From Vectrevirus T145P2: a DNA stretch of 44,662 nt. The notes under the pieces are model-generated. The model was not told the origin of the DNA. It worked only from the letters and a program-made list of their open reading frames with translations, and made no database searches. Within the stretch, counting starts at the first letter, position 1. Every line of letters starts with the position of its first letter. Location of the stretch: the sequence record OZ035802.1. One strand, given 5' to 3'. Of the stretch, positions 8,521-37,221 are shown piece after piece. The position numbers were made by a program, and so were the translations under genes.

Positions 8521-8967
8521 GGCCATTCCTGAGCATTTGACAGGGTGAGCGTGGGTGGGCTATCTGTTCGTTTCGCTCCACTACGTTACGCTACACTCAC
8601 CGCGCTTGTGTATCCTTGGTATAATCCTGATGGATGGCTTAGGTTAGCCTTAGTGGGATACCTTAGTTAAAGCCTTAGTGCTTAGCTTAGTATCAACTTA
8701 GTAGTGTACCTTAGTAAGTCTTAGTGTCTTCTCTTAGTGATTGCATAGCTAAAGCTATAAGATGCAATTAGGTCGCGGTCGGTAGACCGCTAATAAGAAG
8801 TAATAGTAATAAGATGCAGTAGGAGGAACACCAGAAACCTAGCCAACCTAGTCTATCCTAGCTCTGTATCTATTGCTTTCCTTAGTCTCACATGTTAGAC
8901 AACCTAGGTTTACCTTAGCAGTTGTGACAGGTATCACATAAATAATCTATCTTAGTGCGATTTAGTG

Positions 8968-8996
8968 TTGACGTAGGCAGTTAACAGGTATACATT
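8968..8996 (+). promoter_or_regulatory. candidate host sigma70 early promoter
   Basis: TTGACG - 17 bp - TACATT. Confidence 0.4.
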
Positions 8997-9219
8997 AGCA
9001 ATCAGTCGGGAGCGACATTAAACACTCAGGGTGAATGATAGAGAGCGTCCTTAACTATCCGGCCTAGCTACTGAAGCCGTTAAACAATGTTAGATAGTGG
9101 AAGATGGCGCAAGCATAACCTACCACGATAAACCAAGGTTAGCGCAATGCTCTTTAACAATTTGCTTAGTGTAACCTGTGTATGCCGTGGTTAATTACTT
9201 ATTGAATGAGGAATTAACT

Positions 9220-9336
9220 ATGAATTATGAAGAAATGTATGAAGTCTATTTCGACTCATTAGATGAAGGAGAAGAAGCATTAACCTTCGCTGAGTTTATG
9301 GAGGCTTTATGGAGTTTCTATCATGACTCTAAATAA
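9220..9336 (+). CDS. hypothetical small acidic early protein (38 aa)
   Basis: ATG after GAGGAA; MNYEEMYEVYFDSLDEGEE... Confidence 0.35.
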   Translation: MNYEEMYEVYFDSLDEGEEALTFAEFMEALWSFYHDSK

Positions 9337-9502
9337 CCGTGAACTGTCCGTTCTCTTCACTCTGTTGTGCTACATGATTCGTAACAACGAATTACTTACG
9401 GAGGATGAGTTAGCCTTGTATCACCGATTCCTTAACGAAGGTTGGACCGATACAGTTAATCAATACCGTAACATGATAGATGAATTGAGGGAGGGTAAAT
9501 AA
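9323..9502 (+). CDS. hypothetical early protein (59 aa)
   Basis: ORF with overlapping start; stop overlaps next start. Confidence 0.4.
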   Translation: MTLNNRELSVLFTLLCYMIRNNELLTEDELALYHRFLNEGWTDTVNQYRNMIDELREGK

Positions 9503-9763: not shown

Positions 9764-10010
9764 AAGCATCAAGACGGCGACGTCTTTAAACATCACGCTC
9801 TTTAACAATAGAGATTAGGCCGGGAGTATCGGTGTGAGGGATAAGGAGGCTTTCCCACAATTAAACTGGTGGCAAAAGGATTGCCCAGCTTTATAGCCCA
9901 GTTATGGATAGCAATAGCGTAAGGATGGCAGCACACCCGCGAGTCTAATCTCTAGCTCTTTAACAATCTGGTTTGTGTCTTGATAGGCTTACTAACAAAG
10001 GTGAACTATC

Positions 10011-10175
10011 ATGACTAACGCACAACGTAAACGCTATGATGCATTGCAAGAGAAACTTGCTGTTGCTTATGCCGCTTGGCAAGCTAACACAGACAAGAGC
10101 AAACACGATAAACTTTATAGTAAAGTGGTTGCAATTAATGCTAAAATAGATAAACTTGTGAATAGTATCTTATAA
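10011..10175 (+). CDS. hypothetical basic early protein (54 aa)
   Basis: ATG after AAGGTGA; helical K-rich sequence. Confidence 0.4.
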   Translation: MTNAQRKRYDALQEKLAVAYAAWQANTDKSKHDKLYSKVVAINAKIDKLVNSIL

Positions 10176-10324
10176 GATAGTTGCTGGCACTAGCCAGCCT
10201 ATCAAGGCACAAGCCACGCTCTTTAACAATATGGGTAGTCGCTTCTTAGTCTGGATAGGTTAAACCTAGGGTATTCTTTTGAGTGCCCTATAATGTAACC
10301 TAACTAACTAATGAGGATTAAATC

Positions 10325-25923: not shown

Positions 25924-26923
25924 GCTTCGCAGCTTGTACAAAGACTCCGAGGTACTTGATGCAATCGAGCAAGCTACCGACGAGAAAGGTAATGTTAACT
26001 ACAACGAGATGGCACGGGTATTATCGTGTCACCCTGTGGGTAAGAAGATTACCCGCCAGTTGGCTCGATACTGGCATGGTCAATTCAAGAAGACCAAGAA
26101 GAATGGTGATTACTACCAGACTCTTCTGCAAGAGGATAAGCGTATCAAAGAAGAGCGTAAGCTCAGGACTCCTGACCGCTACGAGGATTTGGCTATTGTA
26201 CCACTGCCTGACTCGCCTCATCGAAGTGTACTGGTAATCCCTGACACTCATGCACCTTACGAGCACCCAGATACCTTAGAGTTTCTGGCAGCGGTGGCAG
26301 CACGTTACCGTCCAGACACTGTAGTTCATCTGGGGGATGAGGCAGATAAACATGCCTTATCGTTCCACGATTCAGACCCCAATCTGGATAGTGCTGGCAT
26401 GGAGTTAGAGAAGGCCCGTGTCTTTATGCATAAATTACACAAGATGTTTCCTGTGATGCGCCTGTGTCATTCTAATCACGGCTCTATGCACTTCCGTAAG
26501 GCAAGCGCTAAGGGTATCCCTGTGCAATACTTGCGTACCTATCGAGAAGTCTTCTTTCCGCATGGGGGTGGCGACCAGTGGGATTGGCAGCATACACACG
26601 TTCTTGAGTTGCCGAATGGTGAACAGGTTGCATTTAAGCATCAACCAGCAGGCTCAGTCTTAGCAGATGCAGCGCATGAGCGCATGAACTTAGTGTGCGG
26701 TCACTTGCATGGTAAGATGTCGGTGGAGTATGCACGTAACACACATGAACAGTATTGGGCTGTGCAGGGCGGCTGTCTGATTGATGAGTCATCTCGTGCA
26801 TTTGCCTATGGTCGTGAGTCCAAATACAAGCCAGCATTAGGTTGTGTGGTTATTCTGGAGGGTGTGCCGCACATTGTCCCGATGCAGACCAATAGTGACA
26901 ATCGCTGGATTGGTAAGATTTAG
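25916..26923 (+). CDS. calcineurin-like metallophosphoesterase
   Basis: Motifs IPDTHAPY, HLGDEAD, HSNHG, CGHLHG in canonical order; start likely TTG after AAGGAGG (an upstream ATG at 25883 runs through rare AGA/AGG codons). Confidence 0.7.
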   Translation: MGKLRSLYKDSEVLDAIEQATDEKGNVNYNEMARVLSCHPVGKKITRQLARYWHGQFKKTKKNGDYYQTLLQEDKRIKEERKLRTPDRYEDLAIVPLPDSPHRSVLVIPDTHAPYEHPDTLEFLAAVAARYRPDTVVHLGDEADKHALSFHDSDPNLDSAGMELEKARVFMHKLHKMFPVMRLCHSNHGSMHFRKASAKGIPVQYLRTYREVFFPHGGGDQWDWQHTHVLELPNGEQVAFKHQPAGSVLADAAHERMNLVCGHLHGKMSVEYARNTHEQYWAVQGGCLIDESSRAFAYGRESKYKPALGCVVILEGVPHIVPMQTNSDNRWIGKI

Positions 26924-26940
26924 TTGACACTATAGAACAA
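26917..26940 (+). promoter_or_regulatory. SP6-like phage promoter overlapping 3' end of phosphoesterase gene
   Basis: GATTTAGTTGACACTATAGAACAA. Confidence 0.55.
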
Positions 26941-26991
26941 AGGGTAGGTATTAGCTTACCCTTGATTGTATAGTGAATGGAGGAATTAATT

Positions 26992-27462
26992 ATGTCAAAG
27001 ATTTATATTGGCGAATACGTCGTACGCCGTGCAGCTTACCGAGATGCCTTCTGGAATAAACTGTGTGAAAGCCTAGGCAAGAAACCAGATGGGGTATTCA
27101 AAGTATCCCGTGCAGAACCTAATTATAACTCTATTATGTTAGAAGGTGTTGAGAAGCGCGAATGGTATGCACCTTACTTCAAGGTTGTTGACTCATTGCA
27201 AGATGAAGATCCTAGCACGTTGGACAACAATATGGTTACTAAGCCTAAGCACTATGAGTTCTTCGATGGGGTAGAGGCAATCACTATCATTGCTCGTAGT
27301 ATGACCGAGAAGCAATTTGCTGGATATTGCATGGGTAATGCTTTGAAGTATCGTCTGCGTGCAGGGAAGAAATTCAACACGGAAGAAGATCTGAAGAAAG
27401 CAGACTACTACAAAGAGCTATTCCAGAAGCATCGTCACGAATGTATTGATGAGGATATTTAA
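26992..27462 (+). CDS. hypothetical protein (156 aa)
   Basis: GGAGGAATT RBS; KPKHYEFFDGVEAITII...GNALKYRLRAG segment resembles a phage domain of unknown function. Confidence 0.55.
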   Translation: MSKIYIGEYVVRRAAYRDAFWNKLCESLGKKPDGVFKVSRAEPNYNSIMLEGVEKREWYAPYFKVVDSLQDEDPSTLDNNMVTKPKHYEFFDGVEAITIIARSMTEKQFAGYCMGNALKYRLRAGKKFNTEEDLKKADYYKELFQKHRHECIDEDI

Positions 27463-27580: not shown

Positions 27581-28524
27581 ATATATTCCAATTCCTAGGT
27601 CTTCCAGAAGACCACCGCAATCACCCATTCATGCTGGTGAAACATCGCGGTGAAGTACCTGAGAAGAAATTAACTTTTCCATGTTATGCACAGGTAAAAC
27701 GAGATGGTATATTTAGTGCTGTGGTTGTTCGCAACGATGGTGTCGTTGGTATCTTTGGACGCACTGGAAAGAAACTGGCTAACACGGAAACCTTGGAAGA
27801 ATCTTATTCAGCTTTCCCTACTGGCATTTATCTCGGTGAGTTGCAATCTATGGCTATTGATGTCTACCTTGAAGCACTTTCTGGAGTAGTTAACCCTAAC
27901 CGCACTGAGCCACTGGATTTCATAGGCCAGCAGATTAAAGACAACCTGTATATCGACTTCTTCGATATGTTAACCATTAAGGCATTCCATGATGGATTCA
28001 CTGATGTTTCTTATCTCAAACGTTACGATGCTTTACATCGTCGCATCGGCGCTCATCTTAGCGGGTACAACGCTATCCTTCCTATTACTCCTTGCCATAA
28101 TGAGCGAGAAGTTGAAGCGTTTGCGCAAGAGCAAATAGACGCAGGCCGAGAGGGTGCTGTGTTTAAACTGGACTGTGATTATGAAGCAGGCCACAAAGGT
28201 TATCGTCAGACTAAAGAAGTCCGTAAGGTAACTTATGACCTTACTTGTATTGGCTTTGAAGAAGGCAAAGGTAAGTACAAAGGTAAGGTAGCTAACCTCA
28301 TTTTCAAATGGAAAGGGGGCAAGACAATCAAAGCTATGTTAGGTAAAGGGTGGACTCATGCAGATGCAGAACAGATGTTCCACGATATTAAACATGGTGG
28401 ACGATTGAATGTCATTGGTAAAATCTTTGAAGTAAAAGGTCTTCAGGATTCAAGCAAGGGCAACATTCGTCTGCCCAAAGCGGGAGAATTAAGACATGAC
28501 AAAGATGAACCAGACTTCTTTTGA
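27577..28524 (+). CDS. ATP-dependent DNA ligase
   Basis: 315 aa; adenylation motif KRDG (AQVKRDGIFSAVV) and overall nucleotidyltransferase-like layout. Confidence 0.8.
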   Translation: MNIFQFLGLPEDHRNHPFMLVKHRGEVPEKKLTFPCYAQVKRDGIFSAVVVRNDGVVGIFGRTGKKLANTETLEESYSAFPTGIYLGELQSMAIDVYLEALSGVVNPNRTEPLDFIGQQIKDNLYIDFFDMLTIKAFHDGFTDVSYLKRYDALHRRIGAHLSGYNAILPITPCHNEREVEAFAQEQIDAGREGAVFKLDCDYEAGHKGYRQTKEVRKVTYDLTCIGFEEGKGKYKGKVANLIFKWKGGKTIKAMLGKGWTHADAEQMFHDIKHGGRLNVIGKIFEVKGLQDSSKGNIRLPKAGELRHDKDEPDFF

Positions 28525-28711
28525 TAGCATGAAGGCAACTCGTGCAGTTGAGGTAGCAGAAGCTATCTTCGAAACTTTATCCTGTGGCATGGAAGTGCCA
28601 TATACTTTACTTGCTGATGCAGAAGAACTTGGTCTTTCTGTAGAAGCTATCCAAGAGAAGGTTGACGAATTATATGGTACAGACGAAGAAGAAACCGACG
28701 ATTTCATTTGA
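28496..28711 (+). CDS. hypothetical acidic protein (71 aa)
   Basis: GGAGA RBS; overlaps ligase 3' end. Confidence 0.4.
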   Translation: MTKMNQTSFDSMKATRAVEVAEAIFETLSCGMEVPYTLLADAEELGLSVEAIQEKVDELYGTDEEETDDFI

Positions 28712-28715
28712 AGGA

Positions 28716-28844
28716 ATGGAAATGCTTGAGATGATTCTCAAGCCTTCTTCTCCTAAGGTGACTAAGACTCATGAAGAGTTAATCGTTGATGAAGTTAAGC
28801 GTTACATCATGGATTGTGTCAGAGCACAACTGGTGGTCCAATGA
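28716..28844 (+). CDS. hypothetical small protein (42 aa)
   Basis: ATGA overlap with next gene. Confidence 0.35.
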   Translation: MEMLEMILKPSSPKVTKTHEELIVDEVKRYIMDCVRAQLVVQ

Positions 28845-29302
28845 TACGTCCAGCTTCCTTCCTAGATATTCCTGAGATTATAAACCTTGGGAATAAATAT
28901 GTGGAAGAGGAAGTCAAGGTTGTAGCCCACCACTCCGCCTCATGGAATGCAGAACAAAGTGCACATAACCTTTGTGCATCTCTTAGTAGAGAAGATTTAT
29001 TCCTATGGGTTGCTGTAGATGAAGGGCAGATTGTAGGGTTCCTGTGGGCTGGCTATCACGAGTTGGCCCCTTGGACACCTGTAAGAGTTGCCTCTGACAT
29101 TCTCTTTTATATTATACCAGAGAGGCGAGGAACACTACTTGGTATGCGTCTCATCAAAGCCCTAAAGCAATGGGCTAGTGATAATGAATGCTCTGAGGTT
29201 CGCCTGTCTATCGCCTCTGGTATTAATGAAGAACGTGTCGGACGTATGTATAAGCGACTTGGCTTTGAACCGTTTGGCACTGTGTATAACCTGAAGTTCT
29301 AA
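28841..29302 (+). CDS. GNAT-family N-acetyltransferase
   Basis: 153 aa; QIVGFLWAGYHE...RRGTLLGMRLIKALKQWA...GFEPFG follows the GNAT acetyl-CoA-binding pattern. Confidence 0.7.
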   Translation: MIRPASFLDIPEIINLGNKYVEEEVKVVAHHSASWNAEQSAHNLCASLSREDLFLWVAVDEGQIVGFLWAGYHELAPWTPVRVASDILFYIIPERRGTLLGMRLIKALKQWASDNECSEVRLSIASGINEERVGRMYKRLGFEPFGTVYNLKF

Positions 29303-29311
29303 GGAGATAAC

Positions 29312-29521
29312 ATGAGTGTTGTAAAGAAAGCATTTAAGGCTATCGGTCTTGCTCAAGATGCACCACGTATTGAAGCCAAAGTCCCAGCACAGCAGCTTGA
29401 GCGTAAGCCTGAGACTGAAGCTGAAGATATTCAAATTGGTGCAGGTGGTGATGATGCGACTGCATCTGCAAAAGGTAAGCGCGGCCTTGTCCGTCCGGTA
29501 GCTTCTAGCTTGAAGGTGTAA
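29312..29521 (+). CDS. hypothetical small protein, possibly a minor virion protein
   Basis: 69 aa, Gly/Ala/charged-rich; directly upstream of portal. Confidence 0.4.
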   Translation: MSVVKKAFKAIGLAQDAPRIEAKVPAQQLERKPETEAEDIQIGAGGDDATASAKGKRGLVRPVASSLKV

Positions 29522-29522
29522 T

Positions 29523-31073
29523 ATGAAACAGAGCACAGATTTGGAGTATGGAGGTAAGCGGTCTAAGATACCTAAGCTATGGGAGAAGTTCTCCACTAAA
29601 CGTAGCTCTTTTCTTGATAGGGCGAAGCATTACTCCAAATTAACCTTGCCCTATCTGATGAATGACAAAGGTGATAACGAGACTTCGCAGAATGGATGGC
29701 AAGGTGTAGGTGCTCAGGCAACTAATCATCTAGCCAACAAGCTAGCGCAAGTACTATTCCCTGCACAGCGTTCCTTCTTCCGTGTAGACTTAACTGCACA
29801 AGGTGAGAAGGTTCTTAATCAGCGTGGCCTGAAGAAGACAGAGCTAGCTACCATCTTCGCTCAAGTGGAAACACGGGCAATGAAAGAGTTAGAGCAACGT
29901 CAATTCCGTCCTGCTGTAGTGGAAGCATTCAAGCATCTTATTGTTGCTGGTAGCTGTATGCTATACAAGCCGAGCAAAGGTGCAATCAGTGCTATCCCAA
30001 TGCATCACTATGTAGTTAACCGTGATACCAATGGCGACCTGTTAGACATTATCTTACTGCAAGAGAAAGCCTTACGCACCTTTGACCCAGCTACACGTGC
30101 TGTAGTAGAGGTTGGCCTGAAAGGTAAGAAGTGCAAGGAAGATGACAGCGTTAAGCTGTACACACATGCTAAGTATCTTGGTGATGGATTTTGGGAACTC
30201 AAGCAATCTGCTGATGATATCCCTGTGGGTAAGGTGAGTAAAATCAAATCAGAAAAGCTACCTTTCATCCCATTAACTTGGAAGCGAAGCTATGGTGAGG
30301 ATTGGGGTCGCCCTCTTGCAGAGGATTACTCCGGTGATTTATTCGTTATCCAATTCTTATCTGAAGCGGTTGCCCGTGGTGCTGCGCTGATGGCAGATAT
30401 CAAGTACCTGATTCGTCCGGGTGCTCAAACTGATGTTGACCACTTTGTTAACTCTGGCACTGGTGAGGTTGTCACTGGTGTAGAAGAAGACATCCATATT
30501 GTACAGTTAGGTAAGTACGCAGACCTCACACCTATTAGCGCGGTTCTAGAGGTATACACTCGCCGTATCGGTGTTGTCTTCATGATGGAGACAATGACAC
30601 GCCGTGACGCCGAACGTGTTACTGCTGTAGAAATCCAGCGAGATGCGTTAGAGATTGAGCAGAACATGGGTGGGGTATACTCCCTCTTTGCTACTACTAT
30701 GCAATCGCCAGTAGCGATGTGGGGTCTGCTGGAGGCAGGGGAGTCCTTCACTAGTGACTTAGTGGACCCTGTGATTATCACAGGTATTGAAGCTTTAGGA
30801 CGCATGGCTGAGTTGGATAAACTGGCTAACTTTGCTCAGTATATGTCACTGCCATTACAATGGCCTGAGCCTGTCCTAGCTGCTGTGAAATGGCCTGACT
30901 ATATGGATTGGGTGCGTGGTCAAATCTCTGCTGAACTGCCGTTCCTTAAATCAGCGGAAGAGATGGCACAAGAACAGGAAGCACAGATGCAAGCACAGCA
31001 AGCACAGATGCTTGAAGAAGGTGTGGCTAAGGCCGTGCCGGGTGTAATTCAACAAGAACTTAAGGAGGCGTAA
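29523..31073 (+). CDS. head-to-tail connector (portal) protein
   Basis: 516 aa; position and size as T7 gp8; precedes scaffold and capsid. Confidence 0.85.
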   Translation: MKQSTDLEYGGKRSKIPKLWEKFSTKRSSFLDRAKHYSKLTLPYLMNDKGDNETSQNGWQGVGAQATNHLANKLAQVLFPAQRSFFRVDLTAQGEKVLNQRGLKKTELATIFAQVETRAMKELEQRQFRPAVVEAFKHLIVAGSCMLYKPSKGAISAIPMHHYVVNRDTNGDLLDIILLQEKALRTFDPATRAVVEVGLKGKKCKEDDSVKLYTHAKYLGDGFWELKQSADDIPVGKVSKIKSEKLPFIPLTWKRSYGEDWGRPLAEDYSGDLFVIQFLSEAVARGAALMADIKYLIRPGAQTDVDHFVNSGTGEVVTGVEEDIHIVQLGKYADLTPISAVLEVYTRRIGVVFMMETMTRRDAERVTAVEIQRDALEIEQNMGGVYSLFATTMQSPVAMWGLLEAGESFTSDLVDPVIITGIEALGRMAELDKLANFAQYMSLPLQWPEPVLAAVKWPDYMDWVRGQISAELPFLKSAEEMAQEQEAQMQAQQAQMLEEGVAKAVPGVIQQELKEA

Positions 31074-31997: not shown

Positions 31998-32024
31998 GTA
32001 TTTACTGGACACTATAGAAGGGAG
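31998..32024 (+). promoter_or_regulatory. SP6-like phage promoter upstream of capsid gene
   Basis: GTATTTACTGGACACTATAGAAGGGAG. Confidence 0.7.
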
Positions 32025-33285: not shown

Positions 33286-33322
33286 TATGCCCTATCTACC
33301 TTGCGTAGGTAGGGTTCTTTTT
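33286..33322 (+). terminator. terminator-like hairpin plus T-run after capsid gene
   Basis: TCTACC-TTGCGTA-GGTAGG then GTTCTTTTTG. Confidence 0.5.
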
Positions 33323-33335
33323 GTTAGGAGGATTC

Positions 33336-34073
33336 ATGCCTGTAATTAGACAAACCAGTAAAGTAGGACATATGATGGAAGATGTGGCCTTCCAGATTAT
33401 TGATAGTAAGCTGGAAGCGGTAAACTTGTGTATGCGAGCTATTGGTCGTGAGGGTGTGGATTCTCTCGACTCAGGTGACTTGGACGCAGAAGATGCAAGC
33501 AAGATGATCGACATCGTATCCCAGCGATTCCAGTACAACAAAGGAGGTGGCTGGTGGTTCAATCGTGAACCGAACTGGCAACTTGCACCAGACACTAACG
33601 GTGAAGTTAATTTACCTAACAACTGCCTAGCAGTATTGCAGTGTTATGCTTTAGGTGAAAAGAAAGTACCTATGACTATGCGAGCAGGTAAGCTCTACTC
33701 TACATGGAGTCATACCTTTGATATGCGTAAGCATGTGAATGATAATGGTATGATTCGTCTTACCTTACTTACCTTACTTCCATATGAGCATCTACCTACT
33801 AGTGTAATGCAGGCTATTGCCTATCAAGCTGCTGTAGAGTTTATTGTGTCTAAGGATGCAGATCAGACTAAGCTAGCCACTGCGCAGCAGATAGCCACTC
33901 AGCTTCTTATGGATGTACAATCTGAGCAAATGTCACAGAAGCGATTAAACATGCTGGTACATAACCCCACTCAGCGTCAGTTTGGTATCATGGCTGGTGG
34001 CTCTCAGAATGTACCTGCTTACTCTCATTCACCTTATGAGAGTTGGGCGCTCCGTCCGTGGGAGGATCGTTAA
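33336..34073 (+). CDS. tail tubular protein A
   Basis: ATG after TAGGAGGATTC; position after capsid as T7 gp11. Confidence 0.8.
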   Translation: MPVIRQTSKVGHMMEDVAFQIIDSKLEAVNLCMRAIGREGVDSLDSGDLDAEDASKMIDIVSQRFQYNKGGGWWFNREPNWQLAPDTNGEVNLPNNCLAVLQCYALGEKKVPMTMRAGKLYSTWSHTFDMRKHVNDNGMIRLTLLTLLPYEHLPTSVMQAIAYQAAVEFIVSKDADQTKLATAQQIATQLLMDVQSEQMSQKRLNMLVHNPTQRQFGIMAGGSQNVPAYSHSPYESWALRPWEDR

Positions 34074-36475
34074 TGGAAGTACAAGGTTCATTAGATAGAC
34101 AAATCCAAGGGATTAGCCAGCAGCCGCCAGCGGTACGCTTGGATGGTCAGTGCACAGCTATGGTTAATATGATACCTGATGTAGTGAATGGTACTCAATC
34201 ACGCATGGGTACAACTCATATTGCAAAGATACTTGATGCGGGGACTGATGACATGGCTACTCATCATTATCGCAGAGGTGATGGTGATGAAGAGTATTTC
34301 TTCACGTTGAAGAAAGGACAAGTTCCTGAGATATTTGATAAGTATGGGCGCAAATGTAATGTGACTTCACAAGATGCACCTATGACCTACCTCTCTGAGG
34401 TTGTTAATCCAAGGGAAGATGTGCAATTCATGACGATAGCTGATGTTACTTTCATGCTTAATCGTAGGAAAGTAGTTAAAGCTAGTAACAGGAAGTCACC
34501 TAAAGTTGGAAACAAAGCCATTGTGTTTTGTGCGTATGGTCAATATGGTACATCTTATTCCATTGTAATTAATGGGACCAACGCTGCTAGTTTTAAAACA
34601 CCGGATGGTGGAAGTGCAGACCATGTTGAACAAATTCGAACTGAACGTATCACTTCTGAATTGTACGCTAAGTTGCAGCAATGGAGCGGTGTGAGTGACT
34701 ATGAAATACAAAGAGACGGTACTAGTATATTTATCGAGAGACGGGATGGTGCTAGCTTTACAATAACAACCACCGATGGTGCAAAAGGTAAGGACTTAGT
34801 GGCTATCAAGAATAAAGTTAGCTCTACTGACCTACTCCCTTCTCGTGCGCCTGCTGGTTATAAAGTACAAGTGTGGCCTACTGGCAGCAAACCTGAGTCT
34901 CGTTACTGGCTGCAAGCTGAGCCTAAAGAGGGAAACCTTGTGTCTTGGAAAGAAACAATAGCTGCTGATGTATTACTTGGGTTTGATAAAGGCACAATGC
35001 CTTACATTATTGAACGTACAGGTATCATCGACGGCATAGCTCAATTCAAGATAAGACAAGGTGATTGGGAAGATCGTAAAGTAGGGGATGACTTGACTAA
35101 CCCTATGCCTTCTTTTATTGATGAGGAAGTACCCCAGACAATAGGTGGAATGTTCATGGTGCAGAACCGCCTATGCTTTACAGCAGGTGAAGCGGTTATT
35201 GCTTCTCGTACATCATACTTCTTCGATTTCTTTCGTTATACGGTTATCTCTGCATTGGCAACTGACCCATTTGATATTTTCTCAGATGCTAGTGAAGTCT
35301 ACCAGCTAAAACATGCAGTGACCTTAGATGGCGCTACCGTGTTGTTCTCTGATAAGTCACAATTCATACTGCCAGGCGATAAGCCTTTAGAGAAGTCAAA
35401 TGCACTGCTTAAGCCTGTTACAACATTTGAAGTGAACAATAAGGTGAAGCCAGTAGTAACTGGTGAATCGGTAATGTTTGCCACTAATGATGGTTCTTAC
35501 TCTGGTGTACGAGAGTTCTATACAGACTCTTATAGTGACACTAAGAAGGCACAAGCAATCACAAGTCATGTGAATAAGCTTATCGAAGGTAACATTATCA
35601 ACATGGCAGCAAGTACCAATGTCAACCGATTGCTTGTCACTACCGATAAATATCGTAACATAATTTACTGCTATGATTGGTTATGGCAAGGTACAGACCG
35701 TGTACAATCAGCATGGCATGTATGGGAGTGGCCTATGGGTACAAAGGTGCGAGGTATGTTTTATTCTGGTGAATTACTTTATCTACTCCTTGAGCGAGGC
35801 GATGGCGTCTATCTGGAGAAGATGGACATGGGTGATGCACTAACCTATGGTTTGAATGACCGCATCAGAATGGATAGGCAAGCAGAGTTGATCTTCAAGC
35901 ATTTTAAAGCAGAAGATGAATGGATATCTGAACCACTTCCTTGGACTCCTACTAACCCAGAACTTTTGGATTGCATCTTAATAGAAGGGTGGGATTCATA
36001 TATTGGAGGTTCTTTCCTGTTTAAATATAACCCTAGTGATAACACCTTGTCTACAACCTTTGACATGCATGATGATAACCACGTAAAAGCGAAGGTTATT
36101 GTTGGTCAGATTTACCCTCAAGAGTTTGAACCAACACCTGTAGTTATCAGAGATAGGCAAGACCGTGTATCCTATATTGATGTACCTGTTGTGGGGTTGG
36201 TTCACCTTAATCTTGATATGTATCCTGATTTCTCCGTGGAAGTTAAGAATGTGAAGAGTGGTAAAGTACGCAGGGTGCTAGCGTCAAACCGTATAGGTGG
36301 TGCTCTCAACAACACAGTAGGTTATGTTGAACCAAGGGAGGGTGTCTTCAGATTCCCACTGAGGGCTAAGAGCACGGATGCTGTTTATCGTATTATTGTA
36401 GAATCACCTCATACATTCCAGCTTCGCGATATTGAGTGGGAAGGGAGCTACAATCCAACCAAAAGGAGGGTCTAA
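34073..36475 (+). CDS. tail tubular protein B
   Basis: ~800 aa; TAATG overlap; size and position as T7 gp12. Confidence 0.85.
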   Translation: MEVQGSLDRQIQGISQQPPAVRLDGQCTAMVNMIPDVVNGTQSRMGTTHIAKILDAGTDDMATHHYRRGDGDEEYFFTLKKGQVPEIFDKYGRKCNVTSQDAPMTYLSEVVNPREDVQFMTIADVTFMLNRRKVVKASNRKSPKVGNKAIVFCAYGQYGTSYSIVINGTNAASFKTPDGGSADHVEQIRTERITSELYAKLQQWSGVSDYEIQRDGTSIFIERRDGASFTITTTDGAKGKDLVAIKNKVSSTDLLPSRAPAGYKVQVWPTGSKPESRYWLQAEPKEGNLVSWKETIAADVLLGFDKGTMPYIIERTGIIDGIAQFKIRQGDWEDRKVGDDLTNPMPSFIDEEVPQTIGGMFMVQNRLCFTAGEAVIASRTSYFFDFFRYTVISALATDPFDIFSDASEVYQLKHAVTLDGATVLFSDKSQFILPGDKPLEKSNALLKPVTTFEVNNKVKPVVTGESVMFATNDGSYSGVREFYTDSYSDTKKAQAITSHVNKLIEGNIINMAASTNVNRLLVTTDKYRNIIYCYDWLWQGTDRVQSAWHVWEWPMGTKVRGMFYSGELLYLLLERGDGVYLEKMDMGDALTYGLNDRIRMDRQAELIFKHFKAEDEWISEPLPWTPTNPELLDCILIEGWDSYIGGSFLFKYNPSDNTLSTTFDMHDDNHVKAKVIVGQIYPQEFEPTPVVIRDRQDRVSYIDVPVVGLVHLNLDMYPDFSVEVKNVKSGKVRRVLASNRIGGALNNTVGYVEPREGVFRFPLRAKSTDAVYRIIVESPHTFQLRDIEWEGSYNPTKRRV

Positions 36476-37221
36476 TGGCTATAGGTTCAGCCGTTATGGC
36501 TGGTATGTCTTCTATTGGTAGTATGTTTGCAGGTAGCGGTGCAGCAGCCGCTGCTGGTGGTACTGCCGCAGCAGCAGGAGGGACAGCCGCCGCAGGTGGC
36601 GGAGGTTTGCTTGGCTCCCTTGGTAGTTTCTTAGGAGGTTCTTCTGCTGGCTTCTCTAATGCAGGACTGCTTAGTGCAGGTATGCAAGGTCTTGGTCTTC
36701 TAGGCAATCTTTTTGGTGGAAGTGATGAAGCCAAAGCTATGAAGAAAGCTCAGGAGGAGCAATGGCGGCAGCAGTTAATTGCTACACAAGAAGCATATAA
36801 GACAGTGGCAGATGCAGAACGCTCTGCTGCTAAACAGTATCATGCGGATGCAATAAGCAATCAGGCTTCACTACTGCAGCAGAGAGCACAGGTTGCATTG
36901 CTTGCTGGTGCTACTGGTACTGGTGGTAACTCTGTGTCTTCTATGCTGAATGACTTAGCAGCAGAAGGCGGAAGGAACCAGAGTACAATTATCGATAACT
37001 ATGAGAATCAGAAGATTAACTTCACAAACCAGCTTAAGTCCATCCAACGTGGTGGTCAGATGCAGATGCGTGAGTTTAAGAAACCTTCTGCCGTGAGCAC
37101 CTTGGTGCAAGGTATACCGAGTCTGGCATCTGCCTATGTAACAGGTAGTAAGTCCGGCATGGCTTTAGGTAAAGCTTTAACTGATTCTCGTACATATTCA
37201 TCTGGAACAAGAGGTATTTAA
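36475..37221 (+). CDS. internal virion protein (gp14-like)
   Basis: Gly/Ala-rich hydrophobic N-terminal region; TAATG overlap. Confidence 0.6.
   Translation: MAIGSAVMAGMSSIGSMFAGSGAAAAAGGTAAAAGGTAAAGGGGLLGSLGSFLGGSSAGFSNAGLLSAGMQGLGLLGNLFGGSDEAKAMKKAQEEQWRQQLIATQEAYKTVADAERSAAKQYHADAISNQASLLQQRAQVALLAGATGTGGNSVSSMLNDLAAEGGRNQSTIIDNYENQKINFTNQLKSIQRGGQMQMREFKKPSAVSTLVQGIPSLASAYVTGSKSGMALGKALTDSRTYSSGTRGI

Follow-up and report, generated by a model that had tools for sequence, protein, structure and literature searches.

The 44,662-nucleotide DNA of Vectrevirus T145P2 (record OZ035802.1), referred to below at its full length as the window, encodes on its + strand a 153-aa GNAT N-acetyltransferase (28841-29302). 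The protein belongs to PHROG 1249, a phage-only family that resides in the virion modules of podophages, where it occupies one of two slots, both of them beside genes for small tail-channel or ejected proteins. That the product is a GNAT enzyme is near certain. Its most likely role, put forward tentatively and by analogy with other podophages, is that of a late, non-virion protein acetyltransferase tied to the making of infectious particles; the acceptor and the morphogenetic role are both what we infer. This role is preferred because the family resides in virion modules in two slots, independently of the non-structural genes upstream and also in phages without an RNA polymerase of their own.

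The GNAT Gene

The window represents all or nearly all of a Vectrevirus genome (K1E/K1-5-like; Autographiviridae, Molineuxvirinae), and the lytic lifestyle of the phage is deduced from this taxonomy. The 2-kb stretch around the GNAT gene is 98-99.5% identical to dozens of Vectrevirus phages, and proteins 96-100% identical to its product are present in Vectrevirus records. The open reading frame (ORF) starts with an ATG, and direct reading of the sequence places a Shine-Dalgarno-like GGTGG (28833-28837, + strand) 3 nt before it. The start codon overlaps the stop codon of the upstream gp26 ORF in an ATGA (28841-28844), which suggests translational coupling. Comparison with relatives of 74-97% amino-acid identity gives a ratio of non-synonymous to synonymous substitution rates (dN/dS) of 0.06-0.12, and with these low values the gene is under strong purifying selection, a maintained gene and not a chance ORF.

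Fold and Active Site

The initial annotation had read a 153-aa GNAT from this ORF and had left its fate to a profile search, and the call stands: the ORF is intact, and profile matches, predicted fold and structure searches all support it. The protein scores 40.6 bits against Pfam Acetyltransf_1 (PF00583; E = 3.4e-10), for which the gathering cut-off is 20.7, and the cut-offs of Acetyltransf_7 and Acetyltransf_10 are likewise exceeded (38.1 bits against 27 for PF13508 and 25.3 bits against 23.6 for PF13673). PHROG 1249, labelled "acetyltransferase," is matched over the full length of the protein, from residue 1 to 151 (E = 2.4e-53). The AlphaFold2 model, built with 28 homologues as input, has a mean predicted local distance difference test score (pLDDT) of 90.2 and the topology β1-α1-α2-β2-β3-β4-α3-β5-α4-β6-β7, which is the canonical GNAT order. 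A Foldseek search of the PDB with this model returned 689 matches at E ≤ 1e-3; the top 50 are all GNATs, and the best matches reach template modelling (TM) scores of 0.7-0.8.

The acetyl-coenzyme A (CoA) signature is present in a variant form. The codons at 29117-29143 (+ strand) specify P93-E-R-R96-G97-T-L-L-G101, which by alignment to the PDB GNATs 4j3g and 2bei would form the pyrophosphate-binding loop between β4 and α3. Set against the motif A pattern Q/R-x-x-G-x-G/A, the stretch R96-G97-T98-L99-L100-G101 keeps positions 1 and 6, whereas the glycine at position 4 is replaced by leucine, so that the signature claimed initially holds at its ends and not in its middle. The resulting R-G-x-x-x-G/A appears to be a family-typical variant and is not obviously inactivating. 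In a broad set of 54 family members, with identities down to 19-30%, R96 is invariant, G97 is found in 47 and position 101 is G or A in 46, and P93, E/D94, D/E86, W111 and G141 are strongly conserved. A candidate general acid, Tyr137 (codon 29249-29251, + strand), lies in helix α4 and aligns with the catalytic tyrosine region of SSAT2 ("DLYKALG"); this position is Y in 40 of the 54 members and F in 11. The catalytic-type residues whose loss would have spoken against an enzyme, the R96-G97...G101 loop and Tyr137, are thus retained in the window. Because conservation across the family extends to R3, D9, E23, G66, D/E86, P93, E/D94, R96, G97, W111, Y137 and G141, an active site seems to have been kept and not a mere scaffold, and the protein looks like a working enzyme.

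Of the fold and subfamily assignments proposed as a check in the initial annotation, that of a GNAT fold can be made, but that of a subfamily cannot: searches with phmmer against the PDB, with NCBIfam models and with Foldseek against the PDB and BFVD gave generic GNAT matches only. The nearest cellular enzymes, at 15-23% identity, are phosphinothricin/BAR/ArsN, polyamine (DpA, SSAT), AAC(6') and Naa60/RimI acetyltransferases. The small cellular GNATs, SSAT, SpeG and DpA included, share with the window protein the fold, the CoA-binding topology, the Arg-Gly that starts α3 and the α4 tyrosine, but they differ from it by the low identity just given, and no subfamily-specific acceptor residues can be matched. 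Such neighbors, most of them small-molecule enzymes, raise the possibility that the acceptor is a metabolite, for example a polyamine or an amino-acid analogue, or an anti-phage compound of the aminoglycoside type. The conserved acidic residues D9, E23, D/E86, E/D94 and E131 would suit a cationic acceptor, and some relatives are annotated as aminoglycoside acetyltransferases. However, all matches of this kind fall far under the family cut-offs (25 bits against 140 for AAC(6') and 28 against 170 for ArsN1), and the AAC(6'), ArsN1 and RimI equivalog models of NCBIfam as a whole give at best 25-28 bits where membership begins at 86-170. The structural matches are generic, and the protein N-terminal acetyltransferase Naa60 is itself included at rank 1 of the Foldseek PDB matches. 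An accessory gene of this sort would also be expected to be sporadic and mobile, whereas the position of PHROG 1249 is fixed in the virion modules of very distant phages. A small-molecule acetyltransferase is accordingly regarded as unlikely.

Residence in Podophage Virion Modules

The genes of this family take up two positions. In the first slot, which is that of the window, the gene lies directly 5' of a gp7.3-like small tail-channel gene and the portal gene. In the second, used by other members, it takes the position of T7 gene 13, which encodes internal virion protein A (IVP-A), between tubular tail B (gp12) and internal virion protein B (IVP-B, gp14).

Conservation of the first slot was followed in loci sampled from IMG/VR, a sample biased toward close relatives. 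The trio of GNAT gene, small gp7.3-like ORF and portal is kept in all 31 close loci, and the longer order ligase-gp25-gp26-GNAT-gp28-portal is also found throughout them with two partial exceptions: locus L024 is truncated on the 5' side of the GNAT gene, and searches of loci L045 and L046 found neither ligase nor gp25 or gp26. The order GNAT, small ORF, portal is also kept at 30-41% protein identity, namely in Era103, Vibrio phi-A318, Pseudomonas Alpheus and E. coli ECBP5. The distant metagenomic loci L065 and L067 have a large terminase gene upstream instead of ligase, and GNAT, small ORF and portal are still present. The second slot is seen in SIO1-like and P22-like contexts, where PHROG 1249 members lie among ejection-protein genes of phages that have no phage RNA polymerase; in locus L054 the GNAT gene follows a P22 gp10-like head-closure gene, which is roughly the slot of P22 gp14.

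In the window itself, the gene that begins nine bases past the GNAT stop codon encodes gp28 (29312-29521, + strand), a 69-aa homologue of T7 gp7.3 that matches PHROG 1320 (E = 9.7e-12). T7 gp7.3 matches the same family (E = 9.7e-30), and the C-terminal pattern GKRxL...G-I-N-I/LKV is common to both proteins. T7 gp7.3 is a small basic protein of the tail channel that is ejected during infection (PMC11784390). In the window, the gp28 gene is followed by the gene for the 516-aa portal, or head-tail connector (29523-31073, + strand), which was assigned from the K1-5 annotation and from portal matches that phmmer gave in every related locus, and next by the scaffold gene.

A pattern search for sites resembling promoters of the phage RNA polymerase, with the consensus TACTGGACACTATAG, gave 12 matches on the + strand where 0.26 would be expected by chance. 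They start at 124, 2229, 3892, 10766, 14709, 17020, 17868, 21821, 22589, 23735, 26921 and 32003. The nearest one upstream of the GNAT gene, TAGTTGACACTATAG, is at 26921-26935 (+ strand), and the next, at 32003-32017 (+ strand), stands just before the major capsid gene, with none between them. The first convincing intrinsic-terminator-like hairpin downstream of the GNAT gene (33289-33315, + strand; 11-bp stem and T-run) lies past the major capsid gene. Because of this placement of promoter-like sites and terminator, the GNAT gene is predicted to be co-transcribed with the genes for a DUF3310 protein, ligase, gp25, gp26, gp28, portal and scaffold.

Because the gene travels with virion genes in distant podophages and is, on this prediction, co-transcribed with the portal gene, it is better read as belonging to the virion module than as a neighboring gene of metabolic or moron type. 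The initial annotation had placed it upstream of the structural module; this is correct in so far as the gene lies just before the portal gene, with only the gp7.3-like gene between, but it understates the association.

The same comparisons bear on whether the GNAT could be the toxin of a type II toxin-antitoxin pair of the TacT/AtaT kind, with gp26 as its antitoxin. The small gp26 ORF directly upstream (28716-28844, + strand; 42 aa from the ATG at 28716, or 60 aa from the TTG at 28662) matches PHROG 6507, which has no assigned function, and its 4-nt ATGA overlap with the GNAT gene is the usual layout of antitoxin and toxin; moreover Rac, a GNAT of phage LUZ19 that is discussed below, is toxic when expressed alone (PMC7552054). 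However, gp26 has no ribbon-helix-helix (RHH)/DUF1778 or other antitoxin domain by Pfam and NCBIfam, and the window GNAT has no Pfam or NCBIfam match to GNAT-toxin families. gp26 is detectable by sequence only beside GNATs that are at least 61% identical. In more distant phages it is replaced by unrelated small ORFs, the families of which differ in Era103, phi-A318, ECBP5, LUZ19 and the gh-1-like phages (gp6.7 in the last), and a search of 185,579 bacterial and archaeal genomes, with patterns that reach close relatives only, found no homologues in bacteria, the usual setting of such pairs. In the lack of an antitoxin domain in gp26 and of a conserved partner, the idea was rejected as highly improbable, in agreement with the initial annotation, which had seen no partner gene.

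Relation to T7 gp13 and Other IVP-A-Slot Proteins

An acetyltransferase has been noted in the second slot before. Hardies et al. (2016) described a "nonstructural acetyltransferase" at the IVP-A slot in phiRIO-1-like and SIO1-like phages and stated that T7 IVP-A (gp13) matches acetyltransferases, is needed in morphogenesis and does not stay in the virion (PMC4819975); the same link between gp13 and acetyltransferases is drawn in a study of cobaviruses (PMC6775973). The enzymes of phiRIO-1-like, SIO1-like and cobavirus phages belong to the same sequence family as the window GNAT and resemble it in being small, single-domain, non-structural and encoded inside the virion module. SIO1 gp26.2 has a match to PHROG 1249 at E = 2e-36 and a tblastn match to the window protein at E = 1e-8 and 27% identity, and the GNAT of TPWB-05 matches PHROG 1249 about as strongly as SIO1 gp26.2 (about 1e-36). 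Unlike these, the window gene stands before the gp7.3-like gene and the portal gene, and its IVP-A slot is empty: tubular tail B (34043-36475) abuts a gp14-like IVP-B (36436-37221; together 34043-37221, + strand; ORFs, with Pfam T7_gp14 at E = 1.1e-32), with no gene between the gp12 and gp14 homologues. LUZ19 likewise has no gene in the gp13 slot.

T7 gp13 (Pfam PF11090) and P22 gp14 are, at about 140-150 aa, as small as the window GNAT and lie in the second slot of PHROG 1249. Both T7 gene 13 (9808-10224 of locus L015) and P22 gene 14 (8911-9366 of locus L069) encode morphogenesis factors. A model of the T7 gp13 family, made for a protein 97% identical to gp13 (pLDDT 93), shows the topology of a GNAT, and GNATs make up the whole of its 50 best Foldseek matches in the PDB, so that a GNAT fold is predicted for T7 gp13 with high confidence. 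T7 gp13 is without the R-G-x-x-x-G CoA-pyrophosphate loop; the window protein, by contrast, retains a plausible active site. P22 gp14 keeps a remnant of motif A, "YLPEIRG."

The mechanism suggested by these parallels is as follows. The small single-domain GNAT, predicted to be catalytically competent, would bind acetyl-CoA and pass the acetyl group to an amine of a protein acceptor. Expression from the unit that starts at the 26921 site would yield it alongside the gp7.3-like protein, portal and scaffold, and it would act as a late factor, itself not part of the virion, in the production of fully infectious particles. Its acceptors would be tail-channel and core proteins that are small or ejected and whose genes are always close by, such as the gp7.3-like gp28 and the gp14-like IVP-B. 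The window GNAT would thereby be an enzymatically intact counterpart of T7 gp13 (IVP-A) and P22 gp14. In the SP6-like phages its gene may have left the gp12/gp14 junction and settled directly 5' of gp7.3 and the portal gene.

A wider proposal is more speculative and probably overreaches: the SP6/K1E-type GNAT would be the active form of the IVP-A function of T7 gp13 and P22 gp14, acetylation of lysines or N-termini of gp28 and IVP-B would be needed for their loading into the particle, and a single ancestral GNAT of the virion module would have given rise to Rac, T7 gp7 and gp13 by divergence or degeneration.

Several points weigh against an assembly role. The searchable literature yielded no experimental work on a member of PHROG 1249. 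A sequence link between the window family and T7 gp13 or P22 gp14 was sought and could not be established, as profile hidden Markov model (HMM) searches were negative, including a search of the window with the gp13-family HMM, and the relation is one of fold and position; an hhalign comparison of the window family with gp13 aligned 17 N-terminal columns ("MIRPxxxxD") at 43% probability. The lack of the CoA loop in gp13 means that gp13 may act without acetyl transfer. The two slots are not strictly alternatives, because gh-1-like phages carry both gp13 and a GNAT before gp7.3. The sole characterized GNAT of the pre-portal slot, LUZ19 Rac, targets the host and not the virion (PMC7552054). Many causes can keep phage gene order conserved, and adjacency is therefore weak evidence for a relation between enzyme and substrate. 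Finally, a cryo-EM paper on T7 contains the term "acetyl" 0 times and reports no acetylation of gp6.7 or gp7.3 (PMC11784390), although T7 does not have the enzyme.

The example of T7 gp13, a GNAT fold without the R-G-x-x-x-G loop that the literature describes as a morphogenesis factor (PMC4819975), also raises the question of whether the window protein is a non-catalytic assembly chaperone that merely keeps this fold, as may hold for gp13. The missing middle glycine of motif A in the window family would fit such a loss of activity, as would the change of Tyr137 to Phe in about 20% of its members. By contrast, the invariance of R96 and the strong conservation of G97, of G or A at position 101 and of P93-E94 at 25-30% identity, together with scores above the cut-offs of three Pfam GNAT models, form the pattern expected for a working CoA site, and a chaperone of this kind is judged quite unlikely.

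Relation to Rac of LUZ19

The main competitor of the assembly role is a Rac-like takeover of the host, in which the enzyme would acetylate one or more host proteins in the middle to late phase of infection and shut down host functions; this is a possibility of some weight, yet an improbable one. In LUZ19, the GNAT Rac (gp28) brings about cleavage of the alpha subunit of the host RNA polymerase. The Rac phenotype depends on residues of the acetyl-CoA pocket, and global lysine acetylation rises (PMC7552054). Rac is of similar size (about 155 aa), and its slot is identical to that of the window gene, in the order small ORF, GNAT, gp7.3-like protein, portal, scaffold. GNATs of the Rac family are found in the same slot in Krylovirinae, in gh-1-like Studiervirinae (Ghunavirus) and in Waewaevirus (LIMEzero). 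The Rac-like "gp7" of phiPsa17 is missing from the virion proteome, which is compatible with an intracellular enzyme.

The two families are detectably related. Comparison of the Rac family, aligned from seven GenBank phages, with the window family by hhalign gave a probability of 92% (E = 5e-7, 83 columns); the Rac-family HMM picks only the GNAT ORF in the window (E = 3.7e-5); and the second-best PHROG of Rac is 1249 (E = 5e-4). The relation is nevertheless one of superfamily or profile level only. BLASTP of Rac against the window protein gave no similarity (E = 4.9), and the best PHROGs differ: Rac belongs to PHROG 3986, a different family in phages of a different host, and PHROG 3986 is absent among the PHROG matches of the window protein. 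The residues that are invariant in β4 of the Rac family, D76, H78, V79 and G80 (D-x-H-V-G), have no counterpart in the equivalent strand of the window protein, which reads V-A-S-D-I-L-F-Y; the combination that marks the Rac family, D-x-H-V-G in β4 and the Y/G of the C-terminal motif, is absent from the window protein, and the motif-B regions differ as well, so that the acceptor sites are not conserved. Nor can the phenotype be transferred by position. The LKA1 homologue, which has the same position within Krylovirinae, causes no alpha cleavage (PMC7552054), and cleavage is thus genus-specific even among closer Rac homologues. In addition, SIO1-like and P22-like phages have no phage RNA polymerase, and switching off the host enzyme would be counter-productive there. 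The late assembly factor is preferred to a Rac-like role.

The slot that holds a Rac-family GNAT in gh-1-like phages is taken in T7 by gp7 ("host range," 133 aa; 1631-2032 of locus L015). This protein matches PHROG 3986 weakly (E = 0.025) and the Rac HMM at E = 4.5e-5 with a 6-sequence set, and has no Pfam GNAT match. T7 gp7 may be a degenerate Rac-family GNAT.

Distribution and Annotation of the Family

The initial annotation had described GNATs as uncommon in lytic phages, and the counts contradict this. tblastn finds GNATs of the PHROG 1249 type in 248 phage records, from hosts that include Escherichia, Klebsiella, Vibrio, Salmonella, Pseudomonas, Proteus, Erwinia, Rhizobium and Roseobacter; among the matches listed, the genomes are about 35-50 kb in size, except for one 20-kb partial record. 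Among 1.84 billion cluster representatives, profile matching at E ≤ 1e-10 gave about 1,277 clusters (50% identity). To these may be added 209 further records with a Rac-family protein in the same pre-portal position and 1,205 with the GNAT-fold gp13 family. The profile-search matches are nearly all single-domain proteins of about 150 aa, and the few long ones are tandem GNATs; no domain fusion other than GNAT-GNAT was found among longer family members. Four metagenomic relatives (P0064, P0069, P0075 and P0091) are such tandem double GNATs of 318-385 aa. No close relative or prophage copy was found in the bacterial and archaeal genomes mentioned above, with the reach stated there.

The gene is also not new. 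It has for years been annotated as an acetyltransferase in K1-5, K1E, SP6 and dozens of coliphages that are candidates for therapy; Era103 and others carry this annotation too, and other records label the orthologue N-acetyltransferase or GNAT family, so that the novelty implied initially does not hold. No functional or virion-proteome data on the SP6-like GNATs were found in the searchable literature. K1-5 and K1E gp27 and SP6 gene 28 (Molineuxvirinae) are the same gene with the same neighbors. The window protein is 96.1% identical to K1E gp27, 75% to the SP6 protein and, by tblastn, 86.9% to K1-5 gp27, in which 22 aa are inserted. The K1-5 reference copy (NC_008152; 3842-4369 of locus L001) encodes 175 aa and contains an imperfect in-frame tandem duplication of 66 bp, corresponding to window positions 28927-28993, which adds the 22 residues HHSASWNAEQSAITFVHLLIET in the region of the α1-α2 loop. 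The window copy is without this duplication, and like the other close Vectrevirus copies listed it matches over the full 153 aa. The K1-5 insert may be genuine and tolerated, or it may be an artefact of older sequencing. The label "aminoglycoside acetyltransferase" on some relatives is unsupported by the scores, which is of practical relevance for phages used in phage therapy.

Other Features of the Window

Between the ligase and GNAT genes lie two small overlapping ORFs, gp25 and gp26 (28496-28844), of which gp25 encodes 71 aa and matches PHROG 5860. A few codons into gp26 and about 100 nt before the GNAT start, a hairpin with a perfect 8-bp stem, GCTTGAGA TGAT TCTCAAGC, occupies 28724-28743; it could be an element of RNA processing or translational control, or due to chance. 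Near the start of the unit, an ORF of 161 aa (26977-27462) matches Pfam DUF3310 (E = 3e-25). Its K1-5 RefSeq counterpart is labelled "nucleotide kinase," which looks doubtful.

One promoter-like match on the minus strand (10288-10302) is probably spurious. The ORF of the gp14-like IVP-B, if read from its GTG start, shares its first 40 nt with the end of tubular tail B, and its match to T7 gp14 starts only at residue 81; either the true start is further downstream or the protein has an N-terminal extension of about 80 aa.

Significance

The gene call as such adds nothing, and the added value lies in its context. The family is among the most widely conserved unexplained genes of T7-supergroup-like podophages, always amid genes for portal, tail-channel and ejection proteins. 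The two relatives that have been touched by experiment diverge, as T7 gp13 is required for infectious particles and LUZ19 Rac leads to cleavage of the host RNA polymerase. If the GNAT is indeed the active form of IVP-A, post-translational acetylation would be a general step of podophage morphogenesis. The coliphage of the window would be a convenient model for this very widespread virion-module GNAT family, and the acceptor of such an intact and easily manipulated K1-coliphage member would help to decide between protein acetylation in podophage assembly and host shut-off.

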